This document shows positions 8,927 through 39,823 of a DNA stretch of 64,000 nt, piece after piece. Each line of letters starts with the position of its first letter. Position 1 is the first letter of the stretch. Source of the DNA: Patescibacteria group bacterium (lineage in GTDB: Bacteria > Patescibacteriota > Minisyncoccia > Phycocordibacterales > JAKAEA01); contig JAZKCY010000001.1 of the NCBI GenBank assembly GCA_040387855.1, positions 782,922-846,921 of the forward strand, written 5' to 3'. The notes below the pieces were generated by a model, which did no database searches, was not told where the DNA came from, and saw nothing but the letters and a program-made list of their open reading frames with translations. The position numbers and the translations under genes are program-made.

Positions 8927-8928
8927 AA

Positions 8929-16502: not shown

Positions 16503-16561
16503 ATGCTCCTTTCGGTTAGCGAATAAATCGAACAACCTTGCTCGAGCATAAGAAAATATGA

Positions 16562-22293: not shown

Positions 22294-24522
22294 TTATGGC
22301 TTCACAGGATTTTTTCCTGCCCGAATATCTTTAATGTAGAGATCACCTTGTTCTTTAAATGTAGGATCAAGTTCTACGGCTTTTTGAATTTCAATAACAG
22401 CACTCTTTGTATCATTTAAGTAGAGATGTGCAGCTGCTAATGAAAGACGAGCTTTTGCATTCATTGGGTCTTTTGCAACACGTGTCTTCCATATTTCTAA
22501 GATCTTATCGAATTTCTGTTTTTCAAAATAAGCTTGAAGTAAGGTATCATTCCCTGCAATAAATTCTGGTGTGAATGTGCTAATCAGTTCTTGTGTCAAT
22601 TTTTCTTCGCCTGCATATATTGCTGCAGCTGCGTATGTTAGTCGAGCATCATCAAATTGCGGTGCCAATTCGTATGCCTGTTTGAAAAGAGGTAATGCTT
22701 TCTCGTAATCTTTTTTTGCAATATATGTAGCTCCAAGCTGGAATAATATTACTTGTTTACGTGGAGATAGTTTTTGTGCTTCTGTGAGGTATACAATCGC
22801 ATCATCATGTCGAGCTACACGATCACTAAAGCCTCCCATAATTACATATGCTCGTGCATCCTTTGGTGTTTCAGCAATCTGATTCTTTCCTTCTGCAAAG
22901 GCTAGTGCAAAAATATCAGTATTTCCTTTTATTTGATAAGGAGACATATGAATCCGTTCTGCAGTAGTTAACAATTGTTCTCGTACTTCTTGAGTACCAA
23001 TTGAACGATATGCGAGTGCTTTCCTAAAATATTCAATGTTTGGTGCTACATCACCGTTAAATGGCACAACATCATTTCCATTACGTACGGTTGCTCCTTG
23101 CTGTGAAATAGCTTGAATTAAATTAAGGTTTGTTCTAATAGATGGAACATTCACAAAGTAAATCATTGCAATTGTTGCAACAAGAGCTACTGGAGCAATA
23201 ATTCTATTTTTCTCAAATACATCATGTGTCTGCTTTGGTAGACTCTTTTGAGTTATATATGCAGCAAGAGTGAAAAAGAAAATATAACTAATCAAATTAT
23301 CGAATACAGCAATATTGTGAATAAAGTATGCGGTAAGCAATCCTGTAAGCACACTCTTCTCAGCAACAGTAAACACTGATTCTTTTCGCCATATGTACCA
23401 TAGTAAGGCTGCATATATTCCTAAGTATGATAGAAGTCCCAATATACCTCCAGCAATAAGCCAATCAAAAATCACATTGTGAGTACGATCAAACCACTGT
23501 TCCTGACCGTAGAGTTCCGGATTGTAATTTGTGTTGAACACATAATTAAAATTTTCTTGACCCCATCCAAAAACTGGTCGTTCTTTAAAGCCCTCGATCG
23601 CCATATTCCAAAGTAACAGTCGAGATTTTGTCGTAGTGTCACTGAGTGAAATTGAGGCAAAACGCTGAAGCTGTGGGTTATTTTGAACAAATGAAGTATT
23701 ACGAACGAGAATAAATCCACCGACAATAACTATTGTTGCAATGAGAATACCTCCAGCAGTTCTTCGGAGTAGTGATTTTCGTGCACCTAAGATAAGGAGC
23801 AATATACAGGTAAATAACACTCCTACAACAAGACCAATCAACGCACCTCGAGTCTCAGTTCTATAAAGAATAAAACTTTGCACGAGAATAATTGCTGCTC
23901 CAACAAGTATCTTAGCCTGACGATTGATCCATGTTATACCAAAAAGATTATATCGTCTTGATACTACAAGGTACGCGGTTATAAAAATATGAATTAAAAG
24001 ATATACGGCTAGATATGAAGCATTACCAAGTGTTGCATCAAGTCGATCACCTTGGTGAGTCTCATACATACCAGTAAGCTGCATTACGCCGTAAAAACAC
24101 ATCAGAACACTTGCAGCTATAGTCGTATTCCAAAACCAATTCCAAATTTTCTCGCTCTGAATTACAGTACTTACAACAAGAAAATAGGCCCCAAGATGGA
24201 GAAGTCCAATCAATCCTTCCATTCGTTCAAAGTTTGACCAAAAACTTTTAAATGGATTCAGCCCGGTTGCATCAGCAATAGCCATTACTCCGAGAAGTGC
24301 TCCCACTGCAATAAGTGTAAATGATTTTTGTGGGCGATACCGTTTATCTGTTACCGCTAGAATAAGCCATGCTCCAAAAAGAATTTCTACGAGAATTCTA
24401 AATACGAAACCTTTCCCTGTAATAAATGGGAAGAATAATGAGTTAGTAACTATGAATGGAATAATCAACACCAAAAAGATACCACCAATAATGCTATTCC
24501 GAAGTATTGTATTAATAGTCAT
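22294..24522 (-). CDS. O-antigen ligase/polymerase-like (Wzy_C family) polytopic membrane protein with C-terminal TPR repeats.
   Basis: About 12 TM helices with a Wzy_C-like central region and a C-terminal ~300 aa of TPR-like repeats (AYELAPQFDDARLTYAAAAIYAGE...). It is the first gene of the glycan cluster. Confidence 0.75.
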   Translation of the reverse strand: MTINTILRNSIIGGIFLVLIIPFIVTNSLFFPFITGKGFVFRILVEILFGAWLILAVTDKRYRPQKSFTLIAVGALLGVMAIADATGLNPFKSFWSNFERMEGLIGLLHLGAYFLVVSTVIQSEKIWNWFWNTTIAASVLMCFYGVMQLTGMYETHQGDRLDATLGNASYLAVYLLIHIFITAYLVVSRRYNLFGITWINRQAKILVGAAIILVQSFILYRTETRGALIGLVVGVLFTCILLLILGARKSLLRRTAGGILIATIVIVGGFILVRNTSFVQNNPQLQRFASISLSDTTTKSRLLLWNMAIEGFKERPVFGWGQENFNYVFNTNYNPELYGQEQWFDRTHNVIFDWLIAGGILGLLSYLGIYAALLWYIWRKESVFTVAEKSVLTGLLTAYFIHNIAVFDNLISYIFFFTLAAYITQKSLPKQTHDVFEKNRIIAPVALVATIAMIYFVNVPSIRTNLNLIQAISQQGATVRNGNDVVPFNGDVAPNIEYFRKALAYRSIGTQEVREQLLTTAERIHMSPYQIKGNTDIFALAFAEGKNQIAETPKDARAYVIMGGFSDRVARHDDAIVYLTEAQKLSPRKQVILFQLGATYIAKKDYEKALPLFKQAYELAPQFDDARLTYAAAAIYAGEEKLTQELISTFTPEFIAGNDTLLQAYFEKQKFDKILEIWKTRVAKDPMNAKARLSLAAAHLYLNDTKSAVIEIQKAVELDPTFKEQGDLYIKDIRAGKNPVKP

Positions 24523-24599
24523 AATAGTGAGACTATATCAGATAACACTATACAGAGCTACTTCAAATAATGGAATAACAACACTATTTACTATATAGT

Positions 24600-25859
24600 A
24601 TGATCATGAATACTTTTCTCGATTGGCTCCAACGAAGACTCAAAACTGATGTACGATACCTTGCTTCAGGTAGCTTTTGGCTCAACCTCAATTTTGTTAT
24701 AACTTCGCTCTTCTCATTTTTACTTTCAATAGCCTTTGCACACTTTGTTCCAAAAGATGTGTACGGTACGTTTCATTACATTATTTCTCTTGGAGGAATC
24801 ATCACTGCCCTCACCCTTTCAGGGATGAACTCTGCAGTTGTACTTGCTGTTGCACAAAATAATGAAGGTACTTTTAAACGCTCAATAATTGCTCAAGCAA
24901 AATGGAGTGTTGTTCCATTTATAGTAGCACTCTGTATGAGTGGGTATTATTTTTATAACAATAATACTATTCTTGCCATCTCTTTAATTATTATTTCTGT
25001 ACTAGTGCCTATTTCTTCTGTTGCAAATACTTACTCTGCCTTTCTCCATGGAAAAAAAGATTTCCGATCTAGTTTCTACTATGGGTTAATCATTAATGCT
25101 ATCTATTACGGAATTCTTTTTATTACTATTCTCTTTACCAACAATGTTCTCCTTATTTCGCTTGCATTCTTTATTGCTACAACTTTAGGAAATGTAGTTT
25201 CATATATTCTTACCTTTATTAAATATAAACCCAACAATCTTGTTGATGAAAAAAGTATTACCTATGGTAAGCATATGAGTGTGATGGGAGGATTTGGAAT
25301 GATTGCTAGTAAAATAGATAGTGTTCTTGTTTTCCATTATACGGGTGCCGTTGATCTCGCTATCTATACCTTTGCAAAAATCATTCCAGAGCGAGTTACC
25401 GGATTGTTTAAATCTGTAGGCTCAGTTGCATTGCCAAAATTCGCACAAAGGAATGAACAAGAAATACGAGCGACAGTCCTTCCTAAGACCATTCTGTTTG
25501 CTATTTTTATCTTTGTCTCATGTCTTTTCTATATACTTATTGCCCCATTTGTATTTAGAACATTTCTACCAAACTATGTAGATGCGATCGTATATACCCA
25601 AGTATTCTCACTTACTATTTTAATTGCAGCAGCAAACCTTCCAGTGTCAGCACTTATCGCTCACCGTTTGCAATCTCGACTCTATATATTCAATATAATA
25701 AATACGATCGTTCAAATCAGTGTTCTCTTTGTCCTTATCGTTCCCTTTGGAATTTGGGGAGCTGTCTATGCAAAGATAATCTTTAGTATCTTCTATGTAC
25801 TATTTGCCCTTGTGTTGTTTTTGATTCCTCACAAATCACAAGATCTAACTCTCAAATAG
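24600..25859 (+). CDS. Wzx-like polysaccharide/O-unit flippase (MOP superfamily).
   Basis: 419 aa with ~12 TM helices and the typical polysaccharide-biosynthesis-protein topology; it sits next to the Wzy-like gene. Confidence 0.75.
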   Translation: MIMNTFLDWLQRRLKTDVRYLASGSFWLNLNFVITSLFSFLLSIAFAHFVPKDVYGTFHYIISLGGIITALTLSGMNSAVVLAVAQNNEGTFKRSIIAQAKWSVVPFIVALCMSGYYFYNNNTILAISLIIISVLVPISSVANTYSAFLHGKKDFRSSFYYGLIINAIYYGILFITILFTNNVLLISLAFFIATTLGNVVSYILTFIKYKPNNLVDEKSITYGKHMSVMGGFGMIASKIDSVLVFHYTGAVDLAIYTFAKIIPERVTGLFKSVGSVALPKFAQRNEQEIRATVLPKTILFAIFIFVSCLFYILIAPFVFRTFLPNYVDAIVYTQVFSLTILIAAANLPVSALIAHRLQSRLYIFNIINTIVQISVLFVLIVPFGIWGAVYAKIIFSIFYVLFALVLFLIPHKSQDLTLK

Positions 25860-26825
25860 AATTTCTGACCCTGTATCAGTAAAGGTAAATGGAATCTCAC
25901 GAAGCTTAGAAAGTGCAGCTCGTAGTTTTTTATGATTTTTCTTTTCAGAATAGAATAAGAGGAACCCTCCACCACCTGCACCTAAAAGTTTTCCACCTAT
26001 CGCTCCGTTGTTTATACCAAGAGAATAATATTTATTTATAAGTTTATTGGAAATTGTATTTGCTAATGACTGCTTAAGTTCCCAACCAGTATGAAGCAGC
26101 TTTCCAAAAGCATGCAGATTTCCAGCTTCAAGGACAGCTTTGGTTTCATATGCAATTTCCACCATTCGTTTTGTAGCATCTATTGCATGAAAACTTGTCT
26201 GTAAATTTTCTTTTTGTTTTTCTAATATGGTATTAGCAGAACGAGTAATTCCTGTATAAAATAATAAGAGATTCTCTTCTAATTCTTTTTTTATTTTAGG
26301 CTGTATCCTTACGGGTTCAACAGTTACTTTCCCGTTCTTTAAAAACTTGTAGAGATTTAGCCCTCCATACGCTGCAGCATATTGGTCTTGCTTACCAATA
26401 GGTGAACCAAGCTTTTTAATTTCAGTCTCGCACGCTTTTTGTGCAAGCTGTTCTGGAGTTAGATGCTTTCCAAATTTGTATGTATGCAAAATATTGTGAA
26501 GTCCTACAGCAAAGGCACTTGAAGAACCTAGCCCAGTTTTACCAGGAATATCACCCATTGTTTCTATCCCAATTCCTGTGATCTTTAAATCAGTAATAAT
26601 TGATCGAGCTATACTATTCTTTATTTTTAAAACATTCTTTACGTTCTCGGTTTTACTATACTTAAGCAAAATTTTATCCTGCTCAAAGTTTTGATGCGCA
26701 GTTATATGAATGAATTTATCAATAGAAGTACTCACAACAGCTCCACCATATTTTTTGTAAAAATCTGGTAGATCAGATCCCCCACCAGCAAAACTAATTC
26801 TATAGGGTGTTCGGCTGAGTATCAT
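25845..26825 (-). CDS. hddA: GHMP sugar kinase, D-glycero-D-manno-heptose 7-phosphate kinase (HddA)-like.
   Basis: N-terminal RTPYRISFAGGGSDLPDFY is characteristic of HddA-type heptose-7-P kinases. A GHMP ATP-binding loop (PGKTGLGSSSAFAVG) is also present. Confidence 0.75.
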   Translation of the reverse strand: MILSRTPYRISFAGGGSDLPDFYKKYGGAVVSTSIDKFIHITAHQNFEQDKILLKYSKTENVKNVLKIKNSIARSIITDLKITGIGIETMGDIPGKTGLGSSSAFAVGLHNILHTYKFGKHLTPEQLAQKACETEIKKLGSPIGKQDQYAAAYGGLNLYKFLKNGKVTVEPVRIQPKIKKELEENLLLFYTGITRSANTILEKQKENLQTSFHAIDATKRMVEIAYETKAVLEAGNLHAFGKLLHTGWELKQSLANTISNKLINKYYSLGINNGAIGGKLLGAGGGGFLLFYSEKKNHKKLRAALSKLREIPFTFTDTGSEILFES

Positions 26826-26892
26826 AGTGGATTACACATTACCACACTTAGTATTTTAGGGGTAGATGTGCTACATTAGCCATATAATTCAT

Positions 26893-27825
26893 ATGACATC
26901 TGATAAAAAAACAATCCTTGTAACAGGTGGTGCAGGTTTTATTGGTTCAAATACCGTAAATCTTTTATGTGATCAAGGTCATGCTGTTAGAGTAATTGAT
27001 GACCTCTCTTTTGGATACGAAGAATTCTTAGACCCACGAGCTACTTTTTTCAAAGGTTCACTTGCTAATAATGATGTGCTTGATAAAGCATTGTCGGGTG
27101 TGGATGTGGTTATGCACTTTGCAGCATCAAGTATTATTAAATTTTCTATAGATAATCCCCTCACCTATATTGAAAATAATATTGTAAACAGCACAAAACT
27201 TCTTGAAGGTATGCGACGAAATAATGTAAAAAAGATTGTATTCTCTTCTTCTGCATCTGTCTATGGTGAACCTTTAGAAATTCCTATTACTGAAAGTCAT
27301 CAAAAAAAGCCTCTGCAACCTTATGGCGCAAGTAAGATGGCATTTGAAGATATTTTGAGTGGCTATCATCACAGCTTTGGCATTGAGAGCGTTTCACTTA
27401 GATTTTTTAATGTGTATGGGCCTCGCGATGAGCAACAGCCGGCTACACGTGCAGTACCACTATGGATTAAAGCAATTCTTAGGAATGAGCCAGTTGGAGT
27501 CTACTGGAACGGTGATCAACTTCGTGATTATATTTTTGTGCGCGATGTAGCTCAAGCTCACAGTGATGTTATGAATCTGCCAGGTTGCAATGCATTTAAT
27601 ATTGGATCCGGCTCTGGAATTATAATGCGCGATCTTTTGGAAGAAATCGTAAAACTCACAGGCAGTACCTCTGAAATAAAAGATCTTGGAGAGCGCTTGG
27701 GAGACCCTGCAAAGCTTGTAGCTGATACGTCAGCAATACATAAAGCTGTTGGATGGAAACCCAAAGTTTCTCTTACTGAAGGTCTTCAAGAAGCAATAGC
27801 GTTTTACAAAAGCAGAATGAAATAA
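26893..27825 (+). CDS. NAD-dependent epimerase/dehydratase (extended SDR).
   Basis: TGGAGFIGS Rossmann motif and a YGASK catalytic YxxxK. The start is probably MTSDKK at 26893 rather than the track start at 26866. Confidence 0.8.
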   Translation: MTSDKKTILVTGGAGFIGSNTVNLLCDQGHAVRVIDDLSFGYEEFLDPRATFFKGSLANNDVLDKALSGVDVVMHFAASSIIKFSIDNPLTYIENNIVNSTKLLEGMRRNNVKKIVFSSSASVYGEPLEIPITESHQKKPLQPYGASKMAFEDILSGYHHSFGIESVSLRFFNVYGPRDEQQPATRAVPLWIKAILRNEPVGVYWNGDQLRDYIFVRDVAQAHSDVMNLPGCNAFNIGSGSGIIMRDLLEEIVKLTGSTSEIKDLGERLGDPAKLVADTSAIHKAVGWKPKVSLTEGLQEAIAFYKSRMK

Positions 27826-27826
27826 T

Positions 27827-29035
27827 ATGAAAGCAGTTATTCTGTGTGGAGGATTGGGTACACGACTACGACCTCTTACCGATACAATTCCAAAAGTCAT
27901 GGTACCTATAGGCGGCAAACCGCTTATTCAACGTCATATAGAATGGCTTGTGGGGAATGGCATTCAAGATATTGGTATTAATCTTTTTTATTTACCTCAA
28001 GTTGTAAAAGATCATGTGAAAGATGGATCTCAGTGGGGAGCACGAATTCATTACTCTCATCAAGATACACTCTCAGGAACAGCTGGAGACTTTCGAGCTT
28101 TTAAAGATTTTGTGGGTGATCAACAGTGTCTTGTGATTTATGGTGATAATTTATTTTCTTTAGACCTGAATCATTTCAAAGAATTTCACGAAGCAAAAAA
28201 AGGAACAGCAACAATTGCCCTGCGTGAATGGGAAGATCCCACATCGAAAGGTATCGTTGGATTAGATAACGAGCAGAAAATTCTATGGTTTAAAGAAAAA
28301 CCAAAGCCTGAAGAAGTAACGAGTACTATTGGCAATGCTGCTATTTATATTCTCGAACCCGAATTATTTTCACATATTCCAGATACAGGAGAAGTAGACT
28401 TTGGTATGCATACCTTCCCTTCTCTATTAGAAAAAAATAAACATATCTATGGATATGTACTTTCTACGTATCACAAAGATATTGGTACGCATGAAGCATT
28501 ACAAGAGGCTCGAGAAGATATACAAAAAATATATCCACACAAAGCAGTATTTCTTGACCGCGATGGAGTATTAAATAAAAAACCTGCAGTATATGATTAT
28601 GTGAAAAGCTTTGAAGAATTTGAATGGAATCCTGGAGCGAAAGAACTTGTTAAGCAGATAAAAGAGCTTGGTTTTTTAGCTGTAGTCATTAGCAATCAAC
28701 AAGGCGTGGGACGTGGAAAAATGTCTGCTCAATTTGTGAACGAGCTTCATCAAAAGATGCAGCAAGATCTAGTAGAATATGGAACTTCAATAGATGGCTT
28801 CTATTTTTGTGGGCACTTACGATCAGATGGATGCACATGTCGGAAACCGCAGCCAGGAATGCTTTTTCGTGCAGCAGAGCAACATGGTATCAATCTTGAA
28901 AAGAGCTTTATGATTGGAGACACTATTACAGATATGGAAGCAGCCCGAAAAGCAGGCTGTACAGAAATCTTTATAGAAAGTGATACTATTAATAACGAAT
29001 TAGAAAAAATCCTAGAGATTCTAAAAAAGTCATAA
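27827..29035 (+). CDS. Bifunctional fusion: sugar-1-phosphate nucleotidyltransferase (HddC/GDP-heptose guanylyltransferase-like) at the N-terminus plus D,D-heptose 1,7-bisphosphate phosphatase (GmhB, HAD family) at the C-terminus.
   Basis: N-terminal ILCGGLGTRLRPLT nucleotidyltransferase motif. C-terminal FLDRDGVLN HAD motif I plus the GmhB-specific CGHLRSDGCTCRKPQPGM zinc/cysteine motif. Confidence 0.8.
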   Translation: MKAVILCGGLGTRLRPLTDTIPKVMVPIGGKPLIQRHIEWLVGNGIQDIGINLFYLPQVVKDHVKDGSQWGARIHYSHQDTLSGTAGDFRAFKDFVGDQQCLVIYGDNLFSLDLNHFKEFHEAKKGTATIALREWEDPTSKGIVGLDNEQKILWFKEKPKPEEVTSTIGNAAIYILEPELFSHIPDTGEVDFGMHTFPSLLEKNKHIYGYVLSTYHKDIGTHEALQEAREDIQKIYPHKAVFLDRDGVLNKKPAVYDYVKSFEEFEWNPGAKELVKQIKELGFLAVVISNQQGVGRGKMSAQFVNELHQKMQQDLVEYGTSIDGFYFCGHLRSDGCTCRKPQPGMLFRAAEQHGINLEKSFMIGDTITDMEAARKAGCTEIFIESDTINNELEKILEILKKS

Positions 29036-29036
29036 T

Positions 29037-30116
29037 ATGATTATTCACATTGTATCTACTGTTCCCCAGGGTAATTCACTTTTTCGTAGAGCTTTAGACA
29101 AAGCAATTCGAATTACAGGAATTATACCTCCGCTTCATCGATATGGGATTGATGCTTTGATTCCTTGGAAAAAACCACTGCGCTCTCCTCATGCATCATC
29201 TCGAAATCTTTTGCATCATTTTAAAAAGCTTGGAAAAGTAAAATATTATAGTCTGTATGAAAAAGGAGTTATCAAGCTTGCACCTGATGATATTTTTCTA
29301 GGACAAATAGTGCCCGATGGCGGATTTACCTATGATTCACGACCACAGACAGATGATCACGCATCTATTACTTCTCGCACATTAAGAGAAAATCCGGACA
29401 ACCACAATAAATATCTCATAATTCCTTTTGCAAATGATAAAGCACTCTGGGGATGGTCAAAAGATATAGTAGAAAACCATGCTGATAAAGTAGTACTCAT
29501 TGCTGGGGAAATTTGGACTCGCAATTGGAAAGATGGAGTATATCCAAGTCTTGATCTAAAAAATGTTGTGCGCATAGATAACGGAATTGATCCATTAGAA
29601 TATCCCATAATTAAAAAGTCATTCAACAAACCTGAAAACAGAAAGTTCTTATATATTGGACATACTGCATTTTATAAGAATACTAAAGAACTTGAACGTA
29701 TAGCAGAACAAATGCCTGGATTTGTGGGAGGACACATTGGTCTAGGTAATGTAAAAGGCTGGAAAAAAATTGCAGACTTTGCAGATCTCACTCCAGAGTT
29801 CATGACAAAGATCGCAGAGGAATATGATATATTCGTGACAACGAGCTCAGCAGACGCTCAAGCTACTACTATTATGGAAAATATGTGTTTTGGCTTCCCT
29901 ATTGCTTGCACTCCAGAAACAGGATATGAATACCCATCAATTGTGAAGCTTGACACAACCAATACTGAAGCTAATATTAAGGCACTTACCATGTTAAAAA
30001 ACATGAGTGAGCCTGAATTAAAGGCACTCGTAGATGAAAACTTAAAAGTGATACAAAAATTCCATACATGGAATACCTACGTTACAACAATTTCAGATTT
30101 TATGAATTTAAAATAA
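29037..30116 (+). CDS. Putative GT-B fold glycosyltransferase.
   Basis: The C-terminal half resembles GT4-type nucleotide-sugar binding domains (RKFLYIGH... TIMENMCFGFPIACTPETG). The N-terminal half is divergent. Confidence 0.5.
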   Translation: MIIHIVSTVPQGNSLFRRALDKAIRITGIIPPLHRYGIDALIPWKKPLRSPHASSRNLLHHFKKLGKVKYYSLYEKGVIKLAPDDIFLGQIVPDGGFTYDSRPQTDDHASITSRTLRENPDNHNKYLIIPFANDKALWGWSKDIVENHADKVVLIAGEIWTRNWKDGVYPSLDLKNVVRIDNGIDPLEYPIIKKSFNKPENRKFLYIGHTAFYKNTKELERIAEQMPGFVGGHIGLGNVKGWKKIADFADLTPEFMTKIAEEYDIFVTTSSADAQATTIMENMCFGFPIACTPETGYEYPSIVKLDTTNTEANIKALTMLKNMSEPELKALVDENLKVIQKFHTWNTYVTTISDFMNLK

Positions 30117-30120
30117 TACA

Positions 30121-30726
30121 ATGGAAAAGAAATCCCTAGCCCTTGAAAGACAGTTGGTAAGTAAAGAACAGTTGAGAGAAATTGAACTGAGTATGATTCG
30201 ACAAGAGCATATCAAACGGTATGCGTCTATCAGACGTTTCTGCTACGGAAAAGTACTAGATTGCGCATGTGGATCAGGGTATGGTTCATTTCTTATTTCT
30301 GGAAATCCTGACGTAGAACACGTAACTGGTGCTGATATTAATGCAGAAGCAGTTGTGTGGGCACAAAAAGAATATGGTGACAAGAAAAATAAATTTATTG
30401 CTGCATCTGCTGACACAGTGAAAGGCAAATTTGATACCCTCGTAACCATTGAAACAATTGAACACATCAAAGATTCAAGTACAATCCCAACTCTTGTTGA
30501 GCGATGCAAAATAGATAATCTTATAATCTCATTCCCCGACAAAAAGACCATGCACTACAATACCCATCATATGCATGATTTTGTACGACAAGAAATTGTT
30601 GATCTTTTTCCTAATCATGTGGTCTATCACGTAATGCGATTTACTGATAGTACAACTCTGATGATGATCCGTCTTCCAAAAAAAGCCCCGCATGATCTGT
30701 TTAAGAATATCCGGGACATACACTAG
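30121..30726 (+). CDS. Class I SAM-dependent methyltransferase.
   Basis: Motif I VLDCACGSGYG, an acidic loop and a motif II-like region (LVTIETIEHI). Confidence 0.75.
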   Translation: MEKKSLALERQLVSKEQLREIELSMIRQEHIKRYASIRRFCYGKVLDCACGSGYGSFLISGNPDVEHVTGADINAEAVVWAQKEYGDKKNKFIAASADTVKGKFDTLVTIETIEHIKDSSTIPTLVERCKIDNLIISFPDKKTMHYNTHHMHDFVRQEIVDLFPNHVVYHVMRFTDSTTLMMIRLPKKAPHDLFKNIRDIH

Positions 30727-30744
30727 TCGAGAGTGTTTTAGTGA

Positions 30745-31392
30745 TTATTTAACAGCCTGAATATTGAGACTGATTAGGATATCTTTTCCACCTGCTTTCA
30801 TTACACGTGATGCTTTATCATCAAAATCTCGATGCTCTACTTTTGTGTAATCCCAAAGTGAAACATCTTTATATCCTAGTTCTTTAAGCAACGATCGCGC
30901 ATATGCTTCATTCCAAATAGTATGATGATCATCATACTCTCCATCTTGGCCCAATAATTGATTTACAATTGATTCCGTATTTTTACCTGACAAGGTATAC
31001 ACTTCTACTAAGGCATCAAAATTTGGCACTCCAAATCGTAATATTCCTCCAGGTTTTAATACACGCTTCCATTCTAAAAGTGTCTTCTTAAGATTTTTTC
31101 GTGGAAGATGTTCAACAACATGACTTGCATAGAGAAGATCTACTGAGTTATTTGGCAGCATTCCTAAGTCCTGAATATTTGCTATGTGGTGAATATGAGG
31201 TAAATAAATCGCATCAACATTTATATATTCTTCACTTGTGTTGATTCCTGCTCCCAAGTTTACATATACTTTACCATCTGCATTCTTAGGCAATTTTGGA
31301 CTTATAAGTCTTCGATAAAGATAGTGATATTTTCTCAATACTGATTTCTTTGTATTTCGGACAATTCGGGCAATTAATTTAAGTGTTTTCAT
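30745..31392 (-). CDS. Class I SAM-dependent methyltransferase (Methyltransf_11-like).
   Basis: VNLGAGINT motif I, VDLLYASHVVEHL and LKPGGILRFGVPN. Confidence 0.75.
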   Translation of the reverse strand: MKTLKLIARIVRNTKKSVLRKYHYLYRRLISPKLPKNADGKVYVNLGAGINTSEEYINVDAIYLPHIHHIANIQDLGMLPNNSVDLLYASHVVEHLPRKNLKKTLLEWKRVLKPGGILRFGVPNFDALVEVYTLSGKNTESIVNQLLGQDGEYDDHHTIWNEAYARSLLKELGYKDVSLWDYTKVEHRDFDDKASRVMKAGGKDILISLNIQAVK

Positions 31393-31396
31393 AATA

Positions 31397-32485
31397 TTAT
31401 TTTGCTTGATTATAACACTCAGCCACTAACTGCGAAAGCTCTTTTCCCAGTACATCCGGTGTAAACGTTGATTGGCATAGAGCATACCCATTTTCGGCTA
31501 ATGATGCCTGTAATTGTGCATCCGATTTCAAATCGAGGATCTTATTAGCAAGATCATTAGGATCAGCCTTGTTACAAAACAGTACATTTTCTTTATCTGT
31601 AAATACATCTTGTACTCCAGTAGCTTGAGCTGTTATATACGGCAATCTCATCGCAAGAGACTCATACGATTTATGAGGTATGGTTCTTTCAAGTCGCACA
31701 TGATCAGCAAATTGACCCAAGCTCACATGACAACTCTGCATAAGCATTCGCAACTCTTCAAAAGAAAGGTACTTAGCGATGAATGTAATAGTAGAAATAT
31801 TTTGAGATTTTATATATTCTTCAATCCCTGTAGCACGAGCATCACTATTGGAAGTTGCAATAATTACATCAACATCATGAGCTTCTAAAATTCGCGCAGC
31901 ATCAACGATATGAGCAATCCCCGCTTCTTCCATAACTGTTCCTCTAAAAACTGCTGTAAACTTTTTTCTTTTTGAAGTTTCAATTGGATAGAAAACAGAA
32001 GTATCAACTCCAGTTAATACTCTAATAACTTTTTTCTGATCAAGATTAAATCGCTTAACAAAGAAATCTTTTTGAGGATTACTTTCAACTAAAACTTTAT
32101 GAGCACATTTTACGGCAAGCCAATCTATACATTTAATACTAGTCTTTTTAAACCACGACATTGGACGTGCAGTACGTGAGAGTACTTCAGCTTCATACAA
32201 GCTGCACAACGCATCAAATATGATAGGTTTTGAGCTTATGAGTCGTGCAAAGGGCACGGTTATGTATCCTGTGTACCCCACGATCAACACATCATAGTCA
32301 TTTCTTATTTTCCAATGTTTTTTAAATAACCTGAAAAATTTAAGTATGCCTCTACTATCATCTTGGCATTCAATAATATGAATTCCCTGTGCACGCAGAC
32401 CGTCTTGATAGATTTTATTACGAGAAAACTGGGATTTATAAATCCCAAAATAGCACACAGTAATTTTCTGAGATGATCCTTCCAT
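31397..32485 (-). CDS. Glycosyltransferase, GT-B fold (family 4-like).
   Basis: The size and the C-terminal domain pattern match retaining GT4 enzymes; it sits in a run of glycosyltransferase genes. Confidence 0.65.
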   Translation of the reverse strand: MEGSSQKITVCYFGIYKSQFSRNKIYQDGLRAQGIHIIECQDDSRGILKFFRLFKKHWKIRNDYDVLIVGYTGYITVPFARLISSKPIIFDALCSLYEAEVLSRTARPMSWFKKTSIKCIDWLAVKCAHKVLVESNPQKDFFVKRFNLDQKKVIRVLTGVDTSVFYPIETSKRKKFTAVFRGTVMEEAGIAHIVDAARILEAHDVDVIIATSNSDARATGIEEYIKSQNISTITFIAKYLSFEELRMLMQSCHVSLGQFADHVRLERTIPHKSYESLAMRLPYITAQATGVQDVFTDKENVLFCNKADPNDLANKILDLKSDAQLQASLAENGYALCQSTFTPDVLGKELSQLVAECYNQAK

Positions 32486-32486
32486 A

Positions 32487-33128
32487 TTATTTTTGTGCTG
32501 TCACATAATATCCTAATGCATAGTCTTCAGTACTGTACTGCTTTCGGAGTATTTTTGAGACTACATTAAATAGGCTATCCAATAGATATGTTATGTATCT
32601 TCCTGTGTAAAAATTAATAAATCGAATAGGCCATGGCATCAAGCGATCAATAAAAAGGTATTGTGCACTAAAAACTCCGGTACCCAAAGATTTTATTTTG
32701 ATATTTTTTAATGACAGAAGCTCCAGCTCTGCTTTCAATGTCATTTGTGTAAATCTCCTAAAATCTAACGGTGAGGGATGAACTGGAAATAGAAATGGAA
32801 CCACGATTACGAGCATTCCTTTAGGTTTTATTATTCGAACAGATTCTTTCAAGAGCTCTTTATAAGCAAAAATATGTTCTAACACATTTATGAGAATAGC
32901 ATGATCATACTGAGCATCTTTACAGGGCAAGCTTTTTTCTAAATCATGAAAAATATCAGGAGCGACCTTGTCATTAAGGTTAATAGTTGTAATCGTATGA
33001 GATCCTTTTATAACTGATGCATACTTTGAATTTTTATCACCACCAATATCTACAATACTGCCGTTAAGTGTGAGTCCGGCTAATACTTTATCCTCTTCAA
33101 TTCGTAAAAGTGATGGAATTGATTTCAT
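32487..33128 (-). CDS. Class I SAM-dependent methyltransferase.
   Basis: VDIGGDKNS motif I and HAILINVLEHI motif II region; the start overlaps the downstream glycosyltransferase stop by 4 nt. Confidence 0.7.
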   Translation of the reverse strand: MKSIPSLLRIEEDKVLAGLTLNGSIVDIGGDKNSKYASVIKGSHTITTINLNDKVAPDIFHDLEKSLPCKDAQYDHAILINVLEHIFAYKELLKESVRIIKPKGMLVIVVPFLFPVHPSPLDFRRFTQMTLKAELELLSLKNIKIKSLGTGVFSAQYLFIDRLMPWPIRFINFYTGRYITYLLDSLFNVVSKILRKQYSTEDYALGYYVTAQK

Positions 33129-34153
33129 ATAGATGCATATAATTTTTCTGACAATTTTGTGAGACTGTGATTATCACACACATAGTTTCGTAAGACTGTT
33201 CCGTATTGTGCTTTTTGATCATTACTTAAATTAATAAGCCACTCTAACTTTCGTGCAAGATCAGTGCTATCACCTTCCCTAAAAATAAAGGAGTCATCAA
33301 CTTCTCCCTTTAAATTATCATTTGAAGCAATAGATAGACTCTCACATGCCATTGCTTCAAAAATGGTTTTATCATACATACCACTTGAGCTTAAATTCAC
33401 AAATATTTCATGTTTATTGTATACAGGAACTGTGTCAGTATTTGGTATTCCCTTATGAAATGAAACATTGTGCTTTAAATTATATGCATCTGTTTTTTCC
33501 ACCAGACTTGTATAATACTCTTTATCTTTAACTAAAGGATCACCATAAAAACTAACTGTAGCACTTATATTTCTATCTTTGAGCTGTTTAACGGCCTCAA
33601 GAAGTATATGCGGCTTTTTCGCAGGAGCAATACGAGCAAGAAATAATAATGTTTTTTCTTTTTGAATATTTGAATCTCTTTTGAAAATATCCACATCAAT
33701 ACCCACTGGCATAAATTTTACTTTTTTGTATTTTGCAGTATAAGAAAATTTTGAAGTACAAAAGACATTGGTGCAAAAAGCTGCAGCTATATCTGTGAGC
33801 ATAGATCCTGCATGATGATTTCTCCACATGTAAATCTTCTTACCAAAAAGCTTCCACAGTAATCCCCCCATAAGGATATACTCTTGATTCATATGAACAA
33901 AGACAGCATCATAATTTTTTCTAAACTTAAAAAGATATATATAAAAATTACGTATATATTTAAACCGTGATGGGCCTATTTCTTTACCCAAAGATACAAC
34001 TGTTACATTAGAAGGAAGATTTACGGACCCTTTATATAGACAGACTACAGTAATGTGTTCATACTTGTGTGAAAAAACTTCAATCCATCGATGAAAAAAC
34101 CCCAATATTGGATCATTACTATCTACCTTTTGAGTATAAATAAGAAGTTTCAT
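33125..34153 (-). CDS. Glycosyltransferase family 4-like.
   Basis: C-terminal E-x7-E-like region (TIFEAMACESLSIASN) typical of GT4 enzymes. Confidence 0.7.
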   Translation of the reverse strand: MKLLIYTQKVDSNDPILGFFHRWIEVFSHKYEHITVVCLYKGSVNLPSNVTVVSLGKEIGPSRFKYIRNFYIYLFKFRKNYDAVFVHMNQEYILMGGLLWKLFGKKIYMWRNHHAGSMLTDIAAAFCTNVFCTSKFSYTAKYKKVKFMPVGIDVDIFKRDSNIQKEKTLLFLARIAPAKKPHILLEAVKQLKDRNISATVSFYGDPLVKDKEYYTSLVEKTDAYNLKHNVSFHKGIPNTDTVPVYNKHEIFVNLSSSGMYDKTIFEAMACESLSIASNDNLKGEVDDSFIFREGDSTDLARKLEWLINLSNDQKAQYGTVLRNYVCDNHSLTKLSEKLYASI

Positions 34154-34524
34154 GAACGGAAAATAAAATGTTTATAGATGAAGTAACTAAGTACAGCTAT
34201 AAGTAAACTAGCAATAATTTGGGCTACTAAATAATAAGCATGAAGTATATCAACTAAAATGTAAAGGATGAGCGTATTTAAAACTACATTAATAAGTGCA
34301 TTAGCTAGATACAGCCCAATCTCAACATTAATTTTGTTTAGAGGATCATGTGAGAATGTCCACCACTTTTGAAGTATAAAACTCACTACAATTGATAGAG
34401 CAAACGCATAGATACCAGACTGTAGGTACCATATATGGAAAACATCGGTAAACAGATATAAAAAGAAAAGCTGTGTTCCCGCCCCAATACTACCTGCCAA
34501 ACAAAATTTTAGAATCCTATGCAT
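34150..34524 (-). CDS. GtrA family membrane protein (polysaccharide-synthesis accessory, 4 TM).
   Basis: 124 aa with four TM helices and a GtrA-like N-terminus (FCLAGSIGAGTQLFFLYLFTDVF). Confidence 0.7.
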   Translation of the reverse strand: MHRILKFCLAGSIGAGTQLFFLYLFTDVFHIWYLQSGIYAFALSIVVSFILQKWWTFSHDPLNKINVEIGLYLANALINVVLNTLILYILVDILHAYYLVAQIIASLLIAVLSYFIYKHFIFRS

Positions 34525-35668
34525 TTGGCGGAAAAGCTTTCTCTAAGTATGCTTTATACTTTGCAACATAATCTTCATGACTTTGTGGAAGTGATGCGGC
34601 AACATCTTGCGCCACATTTTTTCTGATTCGGTCTCGTAATAAGGGATCTTCAACCAATGCGGATAGCTTTTGCACAAAGCATGAATGATCACCTACTGGA
34701 CACACCATAGCGTTTTTATTATCAATTAAAACATCTCCCGCTATTCCCACATCGGACGTTACAATTGGTAAGTCAGAAAGTCCCGCTTCTACAAGAGTCA
34801 TGCCATAACCTTCAAACGACGAAACCTGGAAAAAAGCTTGTGCTGATTTGTAGTACGGTGCCAAATTTGATTGCCATGGTTCAAAAACTACAGAATCGCT
34901 AATTCCAAGTTTTGCAATTTTCTTTTTTAAGGCAGCTTCTTCTGGACCCTCTCCCACAATCACAAGACCACACTGTGGAAATCGAATAACAACATCTTTA
35001 AACACATCCAATGCAAAAGATATATTTTTCTCAGGAGCTAAACGTGATGCCATCAAAATAATAAAATTATATTGAGGATACTTTTGAATGAGCTCACGTG
35101 AGACGACTGGCATATATTTTGTCTTATCAACGTATATTGGCAAAACATCAATAATTTGTTCGGGAATCTTGAGTTCTTTTATAATAGACTGCTTGATCTT
35201 ATTTGAAACCACTCTAATTTCCTGAGCATAAGGTAAAATACTTCGAGCCATTTTTACTCTATGTTTATTGAGAAAAGACTGCTTTAGAAACTGTGGGTTA
35301 AACAATTCTGTATGAACCTGCAGTTGCATTGGAAAACCAAATTTTTTTCTTAATCCAAATGCCACACTTCCTGTCTCAAATGGGTCTTGAGCTGTTACTA
35401 CAGTATTGTGAGCAGTTAGATTTCGCTGTTTGACAATTGTTTGCGCTAGACCTCCAGCATCACGCATGTACAACAATTTAGTAAACGAATTTGTCGGATA
35501 CACCCATACATTATTTGAGATTCTCCATGCTTCTAATCCCAACGATGACTGAGCAAAAACAATGATATGTAGTTGATCAAACAATGCACCGTACTCGATC
35601 ATTCGCTGTCGCACAGCGCTTCCTTCTTCAAATATCTTTCTATCAGTACCTATTGATATAACATTCAT
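34517..35668 (-). CDS. Glycosyltransferase family 4-like.
   Basis: GT-B C-terminal motif (EGYGMTLVEAGLSDLPIVTSDVG). The start is probably MNVISIGTD at 35668, which removes the overlap with the upstream gene. Confidence 0.7.
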   Translation of the reverse strand: MNVISIGTDRKIFEEGSAVRQRMIEYGALFDQLHIIVFAQSSLGLEAWRISNNVWVYPTNSFTKLLYMRDAGGLAQTIVKQRNLTAHNTVVTAQDPFETGSVAFGLRKKFGFPMQLQVHTELFNPQFLKQSFLNKHRVKMARSILPYAQEIRVVSNKIKQSIIKELKIPEQIIDVLPIYVDKTKYMPVVSRELIQKYPQYNFIILMASRLAPEKNISFALDVFKDVVIRFPQCGLVIVGEGPEEAALKKKIAKLGISDSVVFEPWQSNLAPYYKSAQAFFQVSSFEGYGMTLVEAGLSDLPIVTSDVGIAGDVLIDNKNAMVCPVGDHSCFVQKLSALVEDPLLRDRIRKNVAQDVAASLPQSHEDYVAKYKAYLEKAFPPNA

Positions 35669-35678
35669 ATATGTATGA

Positions 35679-36824
35679 TTAAAAGTATTTTTTATAGAGT
35701 CGTAAATGTTCAACAAGGACATGATTCCATGTATTATCTACATGCAACTCACTCAAAGAAGCAACGAATCTTTCATATTCGTGAGGAATAGTAAGCTTGT
35801 TCATTTTTTCAGCAATGTCATCCACTGATGCTGGATCTACTTTAAGGAAGTCGTTTTTATTGAGTTTTAAATAATGCTCTTTTGTTAGCAAAAACGGTAT
35901 ACCCAGAGACATACATTCATAAATTTGATTGGGTGAAATATCTGTCCAACTTGGTAATATCACATAATAGCAATTCGCAATTCTTCGGTATAAATCAGCT
36001 TGTCCCATAGTAGGAAGGAATTGCACTCTTGATTCAAGATGTAATGATCGAACTAGTTCTCTTAATTCATTTTCTATTGGGCCACTTCCGATAAGTGTAA
36101 AGACAAAACTTTTATCTTTAAGCAATGCAAATGCTTTGAGTGCAGAATCAATATTCTTCATACGAATAAATCTTCCAACAAATACTATTTCTTTATCTCT
36201 ATCGGCATATGACGTTTTATATGTTTGCACGAGATTAGCAAATCTGTTTTCAGGAACTGGATTATTTATCGTGGTTATCTTTTCTGGTTTTAGGCCGTAG
36301 TGTTTTTGATATAATTCCCGTTGTTGATCAGAATTGAATACTACAAAGCTTGCAGATTTTAGCACTCGTTTAATAAAGAAATAGAGAACTTTATATTCTT
36401 TGTACAAACGATCTTCATAAAACTTTTTAAGTGTCATAGGAGGACGCCCTTCTGAAAGATATTTCTCCCAAATATATCCACCCCCAACTCGCACAGCATA
36501 TTTCTTACGGGTAAGCCACGACACAAACATTACTGGTACTCCTGCAGAAAACCAGTCCATTGAGTATATAAAGTTATATGCTCGAGCTTCTTTAAATACA
36601 GCACTGAAATATGCTATATAGTTGAGCAATTTATTTTTTCTCCGCACAACTCGCGTGAGATGAAATTGAAATTCTTTATCAAAAACATATTCCGACTGAT
36701 CAGAATATGTGATTACACGCACGGTATGCCCTGCAGAAGAAAGACGTCGAGCTAGCTCAACCGTATACGTTGCAGGACCTCCTGGTTCTGGTTTAAAAAT
36801 TCCGGTTGTAATAAGAATTCTCAT
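35679..36824 (-). CDS. Glycosyltransferase family 4-like.
   Basis: MRILITTGIFKPEPGGPATY N-terminal GT4 signature and a C-terminal YECMSLGIPFLLT. Confidence 0.75.
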   Translation of the reverse strand: MRILITTGIFKPEPGGPATYTVELARRLSSAGHTVRVITYSDQSEYVFDKEFQFHLTRVVRRKNKLLNYIAYFSAVFKEARAYNFIYSMDWFSAGVPVMFVSWLTRKKYAVRVGGGYIWEKYLSEGRPPMTLKKFYEDRLYKEYKVLYFFIKRVLKSASFVVFNSDQQRELYQKHYGLKPEKITTINNPVPENRFANLVQTYKTSYADRDKEIVFVGRFIRMKNIDSALKAFALLKDKSFVFTLIGSGPIENELRELVRSLHLESRVQFLPTMGQADLYRRIANCYYVILPSWTDISPNQIYECMSLGIPFLLTKEHYLKLNKNDFLKVDPASVDDIAEKMNKLTIPHEYERFVASLSELHVDNTWNHVLVEHLRLYKKYF

Positions 36825-36854
36825 TACCCTCTATAATAGCTTACTTACCAACAA

Positions 36855-37988
36855 TTATGAAGAAAGAAATTCCTTATCAATTCGCTTTACTATGAGTGGC
36901 CAGCTGTACTTATTTTTGGCCATATCTTGAGCATTTTGTACTATTTGTTCTTTTAACTCATGATTATCCAAAATCTCAGTAACAGACTCAACTATACTTT
37001 GAGGATCATTTACTCTACAGAATAATCCTGTTTTTCTATCTTCCAAGAAATCTGGGATTCCTCCTACTGGTGTAGCAATCACAGGAATACCAGCTGCCAT
37101 TGCTTCAATAAACGATATCCCCTGTCCTTCTGATAGTGAAGGTCGTATAAAAATATCTGAAACAGCAAGATATTTTGGAAGATCTACATTTTCTTTTTGA
37201 CCTAAAAATAATACTCTTTCTGTAAGTTTTAGATCTGCAACTTGCTTGCGCAGTGTATCTTCAAGTGGACCGATACCAATAACAGCAAATTTTATTGAGT
37301 GTGGTAGTAAAGCCATCGCCGCTATAACATCACCAATGCCATTTTTGGCAACAAGACGTGATGTTGTAATGAGCAGCCTTTCCCCTTTTTCTTTTCCCAA
37401 TTCTTTAAAAACTAACTCTAACTGTGCATCGGAAAATGTTTTCATGAAAACTGTGGTATCAACACCATTTGGAATAACTACTATCGGACATGTTGCCCCC
37501 ATATCTTTTCCAAATGTAGCTAAGAACTGTGATATAGCATGAATACGATCTGCTTTCTTAAAAATTTTCTTAAACAAAAAGTACAAGATTCCTACTTGTC
37601 TTTTTATATGCTGCAGTGAATCACCTTCTTGAAGTGTTAAAAAGAATGGTATTTTAGGATGAATTAGTTTAAAAAAAAGTGCTGCAAATCCACTAAAACT
37701 AGCCATGATACTCCACGTGGCATCATACTTTTCAGTTCTATGACGCCTATTTGCAAAATAGTATGCAGTAAAAGGAAATAATAATTTTGATAATCTACCT
37801 TTCATTCCCACTCTAAAGACATCGATGTTGCCTATTCGTTCATACGGCAATTGTTTACCATCAAGATTGAGAGTAACCATATCAAACTCATATTCGTGAA
37901 GTCTGTCGGTAATCTCTTTAACAGCAACTTCTGCTCCCCCAATAAATGGATGATATGCAACTGAAAAAATCAGAATTTTCTTTTTCAT
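36855..37988 (-). CDS. Glycosyltransferase family 4-like.
   Basis: MKKKILIFSVAYHPFIGGAEVAV start and C-terminal EGQGISFIEAMAAGIPVIATPVGGIPDF. Confidence 0.8.
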   Translation of the reverse strand: MKKKILIFSVAYHPFIGGAEVAVKEITDRLHEYEFDMVTLNLDGKQLPYERIGNIDVFRVGMKGRLSKLLFPFTAYYFANRRHRTEKYDATWSIMASFSGFAALFFKLIHPKIPFFLTLQEGDSLQHIKRQVGILYFLFKKIFKKADRIHAISQFLATFGKDMGATCPIVVIPNGVDTTVFMKTFSDAQLELVFKELGKEKGERLLITTSRLVAKNGIGDVIAAMALLPHSIKFAVIGIGPLEDTLRKQVADLKLTERVLFLGQKENVDLPKYLAVSDIFIRPSLSEGQGISFIEAMAAGIPVIATPVGGIPDFLEDRKTGLFCRVNDPQSIVESVTEILDNHELKEQIVQNAQDMAKNKYSWPLIVKRIDKEFLSS

Positions 37989-37996
37989 GAGTAAGA

Positions 37997-39823
37997 CTAT
38001 TTATCGAGTTCTAGAATTCGTCGCAATACATCTTCTGGAATCTCTTTTGGTTTTGCAGAAACAAACGGTGTTGGCTCTGGTTTTCGTTCAGCTTTTGGTT
38101 GTTCTTTGGGTATTTCTTTTGGTACTTCCTTAGGCGCCTCTCGCTTTTGCTCAGGTTGTTGTGAGACTGGCTTTGGTTGTTCTTTACGTTCTTCTACTAT
38201 TCTGATAGGCGCAGGAGTAGGTGCAGGAGCTTCAGCAGGCTGAGTTTGCACTGTTATAGTAGTGCCAAGAACTGATGAAAGCGCATCTCGAAGTGCTGAC
38301 ATATTTTGAGGAGTTGGACCCTTCTTTGGCTTTTCTTTTTTCTCAGGCTTAGGTTCGTTCTTGAGATAATTTAACCGAATAGCATTTCGCAATTCTGTTT
38401 CTCGAGAATTTATAGCTGTAACAGAATTTGGATTTGAAGATTTAGGTTGAGATTGAGCTTTAGGTGCATTATCAAGACGCTTTAGCTCATTGGTTTTAAT
38501 TTCTGCGGTAGAAAGTTTTTTACGATCATCAGCAATAATTGGTTCATGCCATTTCCTAATTGCCTCTTCAACTTCAGCTCGTGGCCGAGCAAAGGTAGTA
38601 CGTGAATATTTGATAATATCTTCCTTAAACGTAATAACTGGCTTTTCTATGGGAGGCAGACCGGTAGCTGAAAATGGCTGCGATGATACTCCATCAATCA
38701 TAAGTTTTAAGTACATTTGGAATTGACCAATGCTCACCAAATCCTCTTTTGTAAACGTCGGAAAGAATTCTTTTTCTAAGACTTCAGCATCAAATGATCC
38801 AATTCGAAAGACGATCATGGTACCCACGTTACCAATTACTGCGGCTCGTACTTCCTCACTCATTTGTTCTATGTATTGGTGAGCAATAGTAAGATTCAAT
38901 TTATATTTTCGAGCTTCGGATAGAATATCTGCAAATGACTCGTTGGCAAAAGATTGAAATTCATCAACATACAAATAGAAATTTGGCATTCGTTTGAGCA
39001 TTGATGGCGATGCATCAGCGCGGCTCATTGCTGCAAGATAAATCTTGGTAATAAGCATACTACCAAGAAGATTTGCATTTGCTTCTCCCACTCTACCCTT
39101 TGAAAGGTTAACGATAAGAATTTTCTTATCATCCATACACTTTCGAATATCAAAAGTTGATTTAGACTGACCAATAATATTTCGCACCACTGGATTTGAA
39201 ATAAACTGACCAATTTTATTCTGAATTGCAGCTCCTGCTTCTTGCATGTATCGTTCACCGTATTTTGCAAACTCATCAAGCCAAAATGCCTTTACTGATG
39301 GGTCAGATACATTTTCAACTACCTTCTTTCGATAGTCTTTGTCGGCAAGCATTCGGTTAACTCCAATAAGTGTAGAATCAGGATATTCCAACAGAGCAAG
39401 AATAATATTGTTCAAAATATATTCCATACGAGCACTCCATGCATCCACCCAAATCTTTTTGAAGGCACTCATGAGACCGTTGGCAACAAGATGTCGACGA
39501 TCATGCCCAACATCTTCCATTACATTAAAAGAAATTGGGTGTTCTAAATCAAACGGCGCAAAGTAAATAATATCTTTTATACGTTCTTGAGGAATATATT
39601 CCAAAAGCAAATCTGCAGTTTTACCGTGAGGATCAATGAAAGCAATACCTTCACCATTCTTAATATCTTGAATAGCCATGTTTTCAAGAAGCGTAGATTT
39701 ACCCATACCAGTTTTTCCAATGGTATACACATGACGAGTTCTATCGCTGGCTTTGATACCAAACGGAACTCGCTTATTGCGCATATCTGTTTCTGCAAAA
39801 TATGTGATTGGATCAGGGTTCAT
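37997..39823 (-). CDS. Soluble P-loop ATPase of the type IV secretion coupling protein (VirD4/TraD/TrwB)-like family with a C-terminal Pro/Lys/Glu-rich disordered tail.
   Basis: Walker A TIGKTGMGKST, IAFIDPHGK (a DPKG-like box), Walker B LYVDEFQ and a downstream NLTIAHQYIEQM (Q..Q motif). No N-terminal TM helices. The last ~150 aa are low-complexity (PKPEKKEKPKKGP...EVPKEIPKEQPKAERKPEP). Confidence 0.6.
   Translation of the reverse strand: MNPDPITYFAETDMRNKRVPFGIKASDRTRHVYTIGKTGMGKSTLLENMAIQDIKNGEGIAFIDPHGKTADLLLEYIPQERIKDIIYFAPFDLEHPISFNVMEDVGHDRRHLVANGLMSAFKKIWVDAWSARMEYILNNIILALLEYPDSTLIGVNRMLADKDYRKKVVENVSDPSVKAFWLDEFAKYGERYMQEAGAAIQNKIGQFISNPVVRNIIGQSKSTFDIRKCMDDKKILIVNLSKGRVGEANANLLGSMLITKIYLAAMSRADASPSMLKRMPNFYLYVDEFQSFANESFADILSEARKYKLNLTIAHQYIEQMSEEVRAAVIGNVGTMIVFRIGSFDAEVLEKEFFPTFTKEDLVSIGQFQMYLKLMIDGVSSQPFSATGLPPIEKPVITFKEDIIKYSRTTFARPRAEVEEAIRKWHEPIIADDRKKLSTAEIKTNELKRLDNAPKAQSQPKSSNPNSVTAINSRETELRNAIRLNYLKNEPKPEKKEKPKKGPTPQNMSALRDALSSVLGTTITVQTQPAEAPAPTPAPIRIVEERKEQPKPVSQQPEQKREAPKEVPKEIPKEQPKAERKPEPTPFVSAKPKEIPEDVLRRILELDK

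Follow-up and report, generated by a model that had tools for sequence, protein, structure and literature searches.

The locus examined here raises a double question: does a Patescibacteria gene that reads a sugar-1-phosphate nucleotidyltransferase and a GmhB-like HAD phosphatase in one frame represent a genuine fusion, and which reactions would the joined halves catalyse? We analysed the gene within its window, the whole stretch of 64,000 nt under study, and in related genomes. Positions 27827..29035 (+) hold one uninterrupted ORF of 402 aa with an ATG start and no internal stop (Table 1). An identical protein, encoded on a 981,549-bp contig of a Patescibacteria group MAG, is deposited at NCBI as MES2437243.1 and is labelled "HAD-IIIA family hydrolase".

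Table 1. Features of the fusion gene and its neighbourhood (positions in the 64,000-nt window) and of comparable genes in other assemblies (positions in the contig or locus named)
Feature	Contig or locus	Coordinates	Strand	Evidence or remark
Surface-glycan cluster	window	22294..37988		Pfam scans
GHMP-family sugar kinase, HddA-like (predicted heptose-7-phosphate 1-kinase, step 2)	window	25845..26825	-	Pfam GHMP_kinases_N, GHMP_kinases_C
NAD-dependent NDP-sugar epimerase/dehydratase (SDR)	window	26866..27825	+	Pfam Epimerase, E 2.5e-60
N-terminal sugar-1-phosphate nucleotidyltransferase domain	window	27827..28525	+	residues 1-233; Pfam PF00483
Junction KIYPHK	window	28526..28543	+	residues 234-239; start-codon scan, AlphaFold2, alignment
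C-terminal HAD-IIIA GmhB-like phosphatase domain	window	28544..29035	+	residues 240-402; Pfam, NCBIfam, PDB matches
359-aa ORF, candidate glycan-cluster protein	window	29037..30116	+	starts 1 nt after fusion stop
Split pair, transferase / HAD	Taylorbacteria contig	8001-8720 / 8704-9219
Split pair, transferase / HAD	L008, GCA_900206355.1	8001-8756 / 8740-9252
NT-HAD-PRK fusion P0118	L006, GCA_040961665.1	8001-9887		GHMP kinase and SIS genes downstream

The initial annotation had read the frame as a single 402-aa protein carrying both domains, and the intact frame together with Pfam and NCBIfam models above cut-off bears this out. PF00483 NTP_transferase matches residues 2-233 over model positions 1-243 of 245 (E 4e-45, 154.6 bits versus a cut-off of 21.2), and Hydrolase_like, Hydrolase and HAD_2 match residues 236-388 (E 3e-13 to 2e-11, all above cut-offs). 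The quoted motifs are likewise present, with GGLGTRL at residues 8-14, DRDGV at 244-248 and CTCRKPQPGM at 336-345. We assessed conservation in an alignment of 27 full-length fusion relatives. In the transferase half K23 and D107 are invariant, and within the signature loop (G8-G9-x-G11-T12-R13-L14) residues G9, G11, T12, R13 and L14 are invariant or nearly so. No solved structure spanning both domains was found in the PDB, where a fold search matched one domain only.

The HAD half contains the expected motifs I (D244-R-D246-G-V), II (S289-N-Q), III (R339-K340-P) and IV (G364-D365...D369). Residues D244, D246, N290, Q291, K340, D365 and D369 are invariant in the same alignment, and S289-N-Q is conserved. 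In E. coli GmhB, zinc is bound by a Cys-x-His...Cys-x-Cys loop. The corresponding loop C328-x-H330...C336-x-C338 is present here and nearly invariant among the relatives, with the CxC pair missing from two Planctomycetota-type members. General HAD-IIIA models score above cut-off (TIGR01656, 144.4 versus 84.15 bits; TIGR01662, 108.4 versus 44.6 bits). The best specific model is that of GmhB, NF006506 (beta type), at 156.2 bits, below its cut-off of 178; the other GmhB models also stay below theirs (TIGR00213, 127.3 versus 149.6; NF050049, alpha type, 106.9 versus 250). The HisB N-terminal model scores lower than GmhB (82.6 versus 156.2 bits), and the top PDB matches are the GmhB structures 3l8h, 4pnh, 3l8e and 2gmw (E about 1e-25). 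The motifs that had been called GmhB-specific are indeed present, but they are common to the HAD-IIIA histidinol-phosphatase-type domain (TIGR01656), and all three GmhB models fall short of their cut-offs.

The fusion had also been described as unusual. A search of other genomes showed that it is not, since the same architecture is abundant in many bacterial and archaeal phyla. In a database of 5.8 billion proteins, 103 of the 120 best matches are fusions in the same order, and their source names include Paceibacterota, Isosphaeraceae, Bacteroidales and an archaeon. We also scanned one genome per GTDB species, obtained at least 600 pattern matches and examined the best 80 loci. An in-frame fusion is present in 41 of these 80, from more than 12 phyla. 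The 41 loci include Flavobacteriales, Bacteroidales, Muribaculaceae, Prevotella, Planctomycetaceae, Ruminococcaceae, Lachnospiraceae, Caproiciproducens and the cultured Holdemanella biformis DSM 3989. Saccharibacteria, Nitrospiraceae, Gastranaerophilales, Gemmatimonadales, Phenylobacterium, Rhizobium, Thioploca and Pseudomonadales are also among them, as are Spirochaetaceae, Verrucomicrobia, Thermoanaerobaculia (Acidobacteriota) and Actinomycetota. A full-text literature search found no published description of the NT-GmhB fusion and no biochemistry of any member. The architecture is very widespread and under-annotated and, as far as this search showed, uncharacterised.

Genes around the fusion offer clues to its function. 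Besides the heptose genes, the cluster in which it lies encodes a Wzy_C/TPR protein, a Wzx-type flippase, GtrA, four methyltransferases and five glycosyltransferases of the GT1/GT4 type. The stop codon of the SDR epimerase lies 1 nt 5' of the fusion start codon, indicating a tight operon, and the GHMP kinase is divergent from this epimerase-fusion operon. When the operon was scanned for promoters and terminators, the counts were not above those of shuffled sequence. Of the NCBIfam models, HddA NF049969 matches the kinase best; its 181.6 bits fall short of the curated cut-off (600) but far exceed the scores for fucokinase, mevalonate kinase and galactokinase. The SDR is matched best by GalE (234.8 bits versus a cut-off of 262.3). 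Neither Pfam nor NCBIfam assigns a family to the ORF downstream of the fusion, and the PDB gave no meaningful match for it; its product may be an unclassified glycosyltransferase or modifying enzyme. Beside the glycan cluster, a 608-aa protein (37997..39823, -) shows weak T4SS-DNA_transf, TrwB_AAD_bind and DUF87/HerA-like matches (type IV secretion coupling). Elsewhere in the window we noted a 299-aa 2OG-Fe(II) oxygenase family protein (15636..16535, -; 2OG-FeII_Oxy, DIOX_N), which seems unexpected for a small Patescibacteria genome.

The neighbourhood is conserved. The closest relatives (L001, L002, L003) keep the triad of kinase (-), epimerase (+) and fusion (+), and an HddA-like GHMP kinase adjoins the fusion in all of L001-L006. 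Gene order varies: GHMP, fusion, epimerase in Isosphaeraceae (L004); GHMP, SIS, epimerase, fusion in an archaeon (L005); and, in GCA_040961665.1 (L006), a fusion with an added PRK-type domain followed by GHMP and then SIS. The fusion occurs together with both GHMP and SIS/GmhA genes in Pacebacteria L002 and in the L005 and L006 loci. Within 6 kb of the 41 in-frame fusions we found an HddA-like kinase in 34, a GmhA-like SIS gene in 28 and both in 26, several of the remaining loci being on truncated contigs. No GmhA was detected in the 64-kb window by tblastn (best E 0.7 with E. coli GmhA and the L002 SIS protein as queries), and there is no GmhA gene within 10 kb of the fusion in the closest large-contig relative, L001. 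The 120 best homologues of the L002 SIS protein in the database of 5.8 billion proteins, a list that ends at about 53% identity within a huge family, include no recognisable GmhA of the same genome.

A four-step heptose pathway has been described for C. jejuni together with its enzyme order, in which the phosphatase and the nucleotidyltransferase carry out the consecutive steps 3 and 4 (PMC10680097). Because the conserved neighbourhood points to the GHMP-kinase heptose pathway, a fusion of these two steps is most likely. We therefore read the gene, with a probability of about 0.68, as coding for a bifunctional enzyme in heptose activation by the GHMP-kinase (alpha-anomer) pathway, and its predicted activity is most likely that of a heptose-1,7-bisphosphate 7-phosphatase / heptose-1-phosphate nucleotidyltransferase. 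The initial annotation had assigned the fusion to steps 3 and 4 of the GDP-heptose pathway. The choice of steps remains the most likely one, given the HddA-like neighbour and the GmhA-like genes of relatives; the GDP part does not hold equally well, in view of a glutamine at the base-reading position (Gln79, see below).

In the proposed sequence of reactions, the HddA-like GHMP kinase would perform step 2 by phosphorylating heptose-7-phosphate at position 1. The HAD domain would then remove the 7-phosphate, with Asp244 as the putative nucleophile and Asp246 as acid/base, and the N-terminal transferase would form a nucleotide-heptose from the resulting heptose-1-phosphate. The analysis shows the identities of the domains, their catalytic residues, the in-frame fusion and the conservation of its neighbourhood; from these we infer the substrate, the order of the two steps and the use of a nucleotide, and channelling between the two halves, as had been suggested, would be conceivable. 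The co-transcribed SDR epimerase would probably modify the nucleotide-heptose product, and the glycosyltransferases of the Wzx/Wzy-type cluster would use the modified sugar. Most likely, the sugar ends up in a surface polysaccharide or a glycoprotein glycan. Consistent with the heptose reading, fusions elsewhere join the same type of HAD domain with SIS, with SIS plus NT, or with a GT9 heptosyltransferase.

Which nucleotide the transferase half would use is less clear. It had been labelled HddC, a name that would imply GTP as substrate and GDP-heptose as product. The label does not survive comparison with the HddC equivalog NF049965, which scores 96.3 bits on this half versus a cut-off of 300. 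With the same model, six further fusion proteins reach only 86-110 bits, and for a seventh, P0084, it is not listed at E <= 1e-20. The best NCBIfam match of the N-terminal half is a mannose-1-phosphate guanylyltransferase model (148 bits), and among solved structures the nearest are those of the CugP-type UGPase tlr0611 (8x7s), of GDP-mannose pyrophosphorylases and of RmlA. Yersinia HddC matches only distantly. In HddC the first Glu of the motif EXEPLGTGGA (Glu80 in Yersinia) is the key guanine contact, and enzymes using UTP have Gln there (PMC6981941). The corresponding stretch here reads Q79-D-T-L-S-G-T-A-G-D and departs from the HddC motif. In HMMER alignments Gln79 stands opposite the Gln83-equivalent of two RmlA structures (a dTTP enzyme) and also opposite the first Glu of 'ETEPLG' in Arabidopsis VTC1, i.e. 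the Glu of GDP-mannose pyrophosphorylase.

Among the 120 best matches, Gln occupies the base-reading position in 22 proteins, all from this Patescibacteria clade (8 fused and 14 transferase-only). Glu is found there in 54 other fusions, and Ser, Thr or Gly in 40 fusions of a divergent 'DETGxR' type. Within the clade itself, 22 of the 25 members surveyed have Gln; the exceptions include P0013 (Glu) and P0016 (Leu). In the large divergent group with Ser, Thr or Gly (P0028, P0029, P0114 and about 40 others of the 120), the nucleotide-binding loop 'DETG[RT]R' replaces the usual LGTAG.

The strongest competing view is that the transferase half nevertheless uses GTP and gives GDP-heptose. No nucleotide other than GDP has been documented for heptose activation by the GHMP-kinase (alpha) route (PMC10680097), and both the guanylyltransferase match and the Glu of the 54 other fusions agree with it. 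We consider it unlikely, although it deserves weight: GDP is not established here, because Gln79 takes the place of the guanine-reading Glu and the HddC equivalog remains below cut-off, and the substitution is shared with the fused and transferase-only relatives, P0013 and P0016 apart. The ambiguous alignment of Gln79 with both RmlA and GDP-mannose pyrophosphorylase also counts against a firm GDP assignment, as does the lowered GTP preference of the HddC variant E80Q (PMC6981941). GTP as substrate of the transferase half thus appears doubtful. On the other hand, Gln79 does not indicate which nucleotide is used instead, because the E80Q variant shifted toward ATP rather than UTP (PMC6981941). 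Tentatively, the Gln-type clade might make a nucleotide-heptose of the alpha (GHMP-kinase) route that has not been described so far, a possibility that we rate well short of even odds. The type of the neighbouring SDR (GalE-like or GMD-like) was considered as an indicator of the nucleotide and rejected, as Glu-type Planctomycetota fusions adjoin true GalE genes.

Could the enzyme pair act on a hexose rather than a heptose? In that case the kinase would convert a 6-phosphate to mannose or glucose 1,6-bisphosphate, the HAD domain would remove the 6-phosphate and the transferase would yield an NDP-hexose, bypassing phosphomannomutase or phosphoglucomutase in a reduced genome. Some points weigh against heptose and in part toward this alternative. 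Specific curated models score below cut-off throughout (156/178 and 107/250 for GmhB, 96/300 for HddC, 182/600 for HddA), a GmhA/SIS gene is lacking both in the 64-kb window and within 10 kb of L001, and the transferase half is nearer to CugP-type UGPase, GDP-mannose pyrophosphorylases and RmlA, i.e. more like hexose-1-phosphate enzymes, than to HddC. Some relatives have been auto-named 'mannose-1-phosphate guanylyltransferase/phosphomannomutase' by JGI. However, most other genomes have GmhA-like genes next to the fusion, also within the clade (L002 and the P0006 contig), SIS-NT-HAD triple fusions exist, and the best match of the kinase is by far HddA. We thus regard the hexose alternative as improbable and retain the heptose pathway as the preferred reading.

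All of this presupposes that the two halves are truly one gene. A start-codon scan found no in-frame ATG, GTG or TTG at residues 200-258, and the first candidate start inside the HAD half is a GTG at residue 259, 3' of the catalytic DRDG. Therefore, the HAD half could not be translated alone with its catalytic motif. The fused frame recurs, without a gap at the junction, in seven relatives encoded on other contigs (P0002-P0008, 59-66% identity). The AlphaFold2 model is compact (mean pLDDT 95.2, pTM 0.91); pLDDT across the very short junction is about 93-97, with no predicted disorder and no low-confidence linker, and the helix at 222-235 passes almost directly into the HAD strand at 240-244. 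The only plausible site of a sequencing error is an A6 run at 28524-28529, just 5' of the junction. That a frameshift or assembly error merged two neighbouring genes is very improbable. In favour of this view, the halves are encoded separately in close relatives, with a 17-nt overlap and in different frames, and the homopolymer directly precedes the junction. Against it, the HAD half has no start ahead of its DRDG, the gapless frame recurs in the seven relatives, 41 species-representative genomes have in-frame fusions, and the model folds compactly and is ordered across the junction. To the extent that sequence can tell, the gene is a genuine single-gene fusion.

Fused and split forms coexist in this clade. 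The closest transferase-only relatives are 60-68% identical, and in some relatives a separate HAD gene lies directly 3' of the transferase gene in the +1 frame with the 17-nt overlap (Table 1). The halves of the L008 pair are 63% (transferase) and 53% (HAD) identical to those of our gene; in L007 no HAD gene is found beside the transferase gene. That the overlap is exactly the same in two assemblies fits a single fission (or pre-fusion) state inherited within a subclade. In a neighbour-joining tree of the transferase domain, the Gln clade (99% bootstrap) is placed beside Glu-type fusions. Fused and split members are interleaved within it, with fused monophyly in 0 of 100 replicates, which indicates that fusion or fission occurred more than once in this clade. 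As to an independent origin of the clade's fusion, the transferase tree puts the clade beside the Glu-type fusions, and the tree of the HAD domain gives little resolution (support 12); gain or loss of the fusion would both fit. The presence of fused and split forms at about 60% identity in one clade offers a natural test of what the fusion contributes.

The main use of recognising the fusion lies in annotation. Genes of this kind number in the thousands and carry no label beyond "HAD-IIIA family hydrolase" or "gmhB", so that many genomes seem to lack the nucleotidyltransferase step of heptose activation. For example, a Muribaculaceae capsule locus has been annotated with gmhA, gmhB and hddA but without hddC (PMC8636109). 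With the fusion recognised, this apparent gap closes, and surface glycans that contain heptose would be predicted for Patescibacteria, for archaea and for many Bacillota and Bacteroidota of the gut. Points of biochemical interest are the nucleotide of the Gln-type and 'DETG'-type transferases and a possible kinetic advantage of joining phosphatase and transferase.

We compared the fusion with known systems. Separate GmhB and HddC of the alpha route perform the same consecutive chemistries (7-phosphatase, then heptose-1-phosphate nucleotidyltransferase), have the same partners (GHMP kinase HddA and, in relatives of our gene, GmhA) and also make a product for a surface glycan. The system described here differs in combining both activities in one polypeptide and in a transferase half that is not an HddC orthologue (equivalog below cut-off, Gln79), so that its nucleotide may differ from that of the alpha route. 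HldE, the heptose-7-phosphate kinase / heptose-1-phosphate adenylyltransferase of the ADP-heptose pathway, is likewise a fused two-step nucleotide-heptose enzyme. However, its folds are a ribokinase-type kinase and a cytidylyltransferase-type transferase, and it joins steps 2 and 4 with the beta anomer, whereas here steps 3 and 4 would be joined. HldE/HldC-type transferases, which have been surveyed across kingdoms (commentary PMC11461863), belong to a family other than PF00483. HisB (HisN-HisB) of gamma-proteobacteria and Bacteroidota joins a HAD-IIIA phosphatase with the same DxDGT/V, CxH...CxC and RKP motifs to imidazoleglycerol-phosphate dehydratase, and thus differs in partner and pathway.

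HldE had been cited as the known bifunctional heptose enzyme, yet our searches returned several other fusions. They comprise SIS-HAD (P0242, 351 aa), SIS-NT-HAD (P0272, 665 aa, with three of four pathway steps in one protein), HAD-GT9 heptosyltransferase (P0307, 561 aa), SDR epimerase-HAD (P0247, 481 aa) and GT4-HAD (P0248 and P0251, the latter with an added methyltransferase). A further group of about 620-630 aa combines NT, a GmhB-like HAD domain and a PRK/uridine-kinase-type P-loop domain (P0118, P0105, P0052, P0068, P0094, P0104, P0109). P0242, P0272, P0118 and P0307 share the GmhB-like HAD domain of our gene (43-52% identity) and differ in partners or domain order; as far as we found, these four are known as database sequences only. 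We also observed the reverse arrangement, with HAD 5' of the transferase, in a Saccharibacteria locus (L057, 6061-7322) and a Geobacter locus (L059, 6001-7173).
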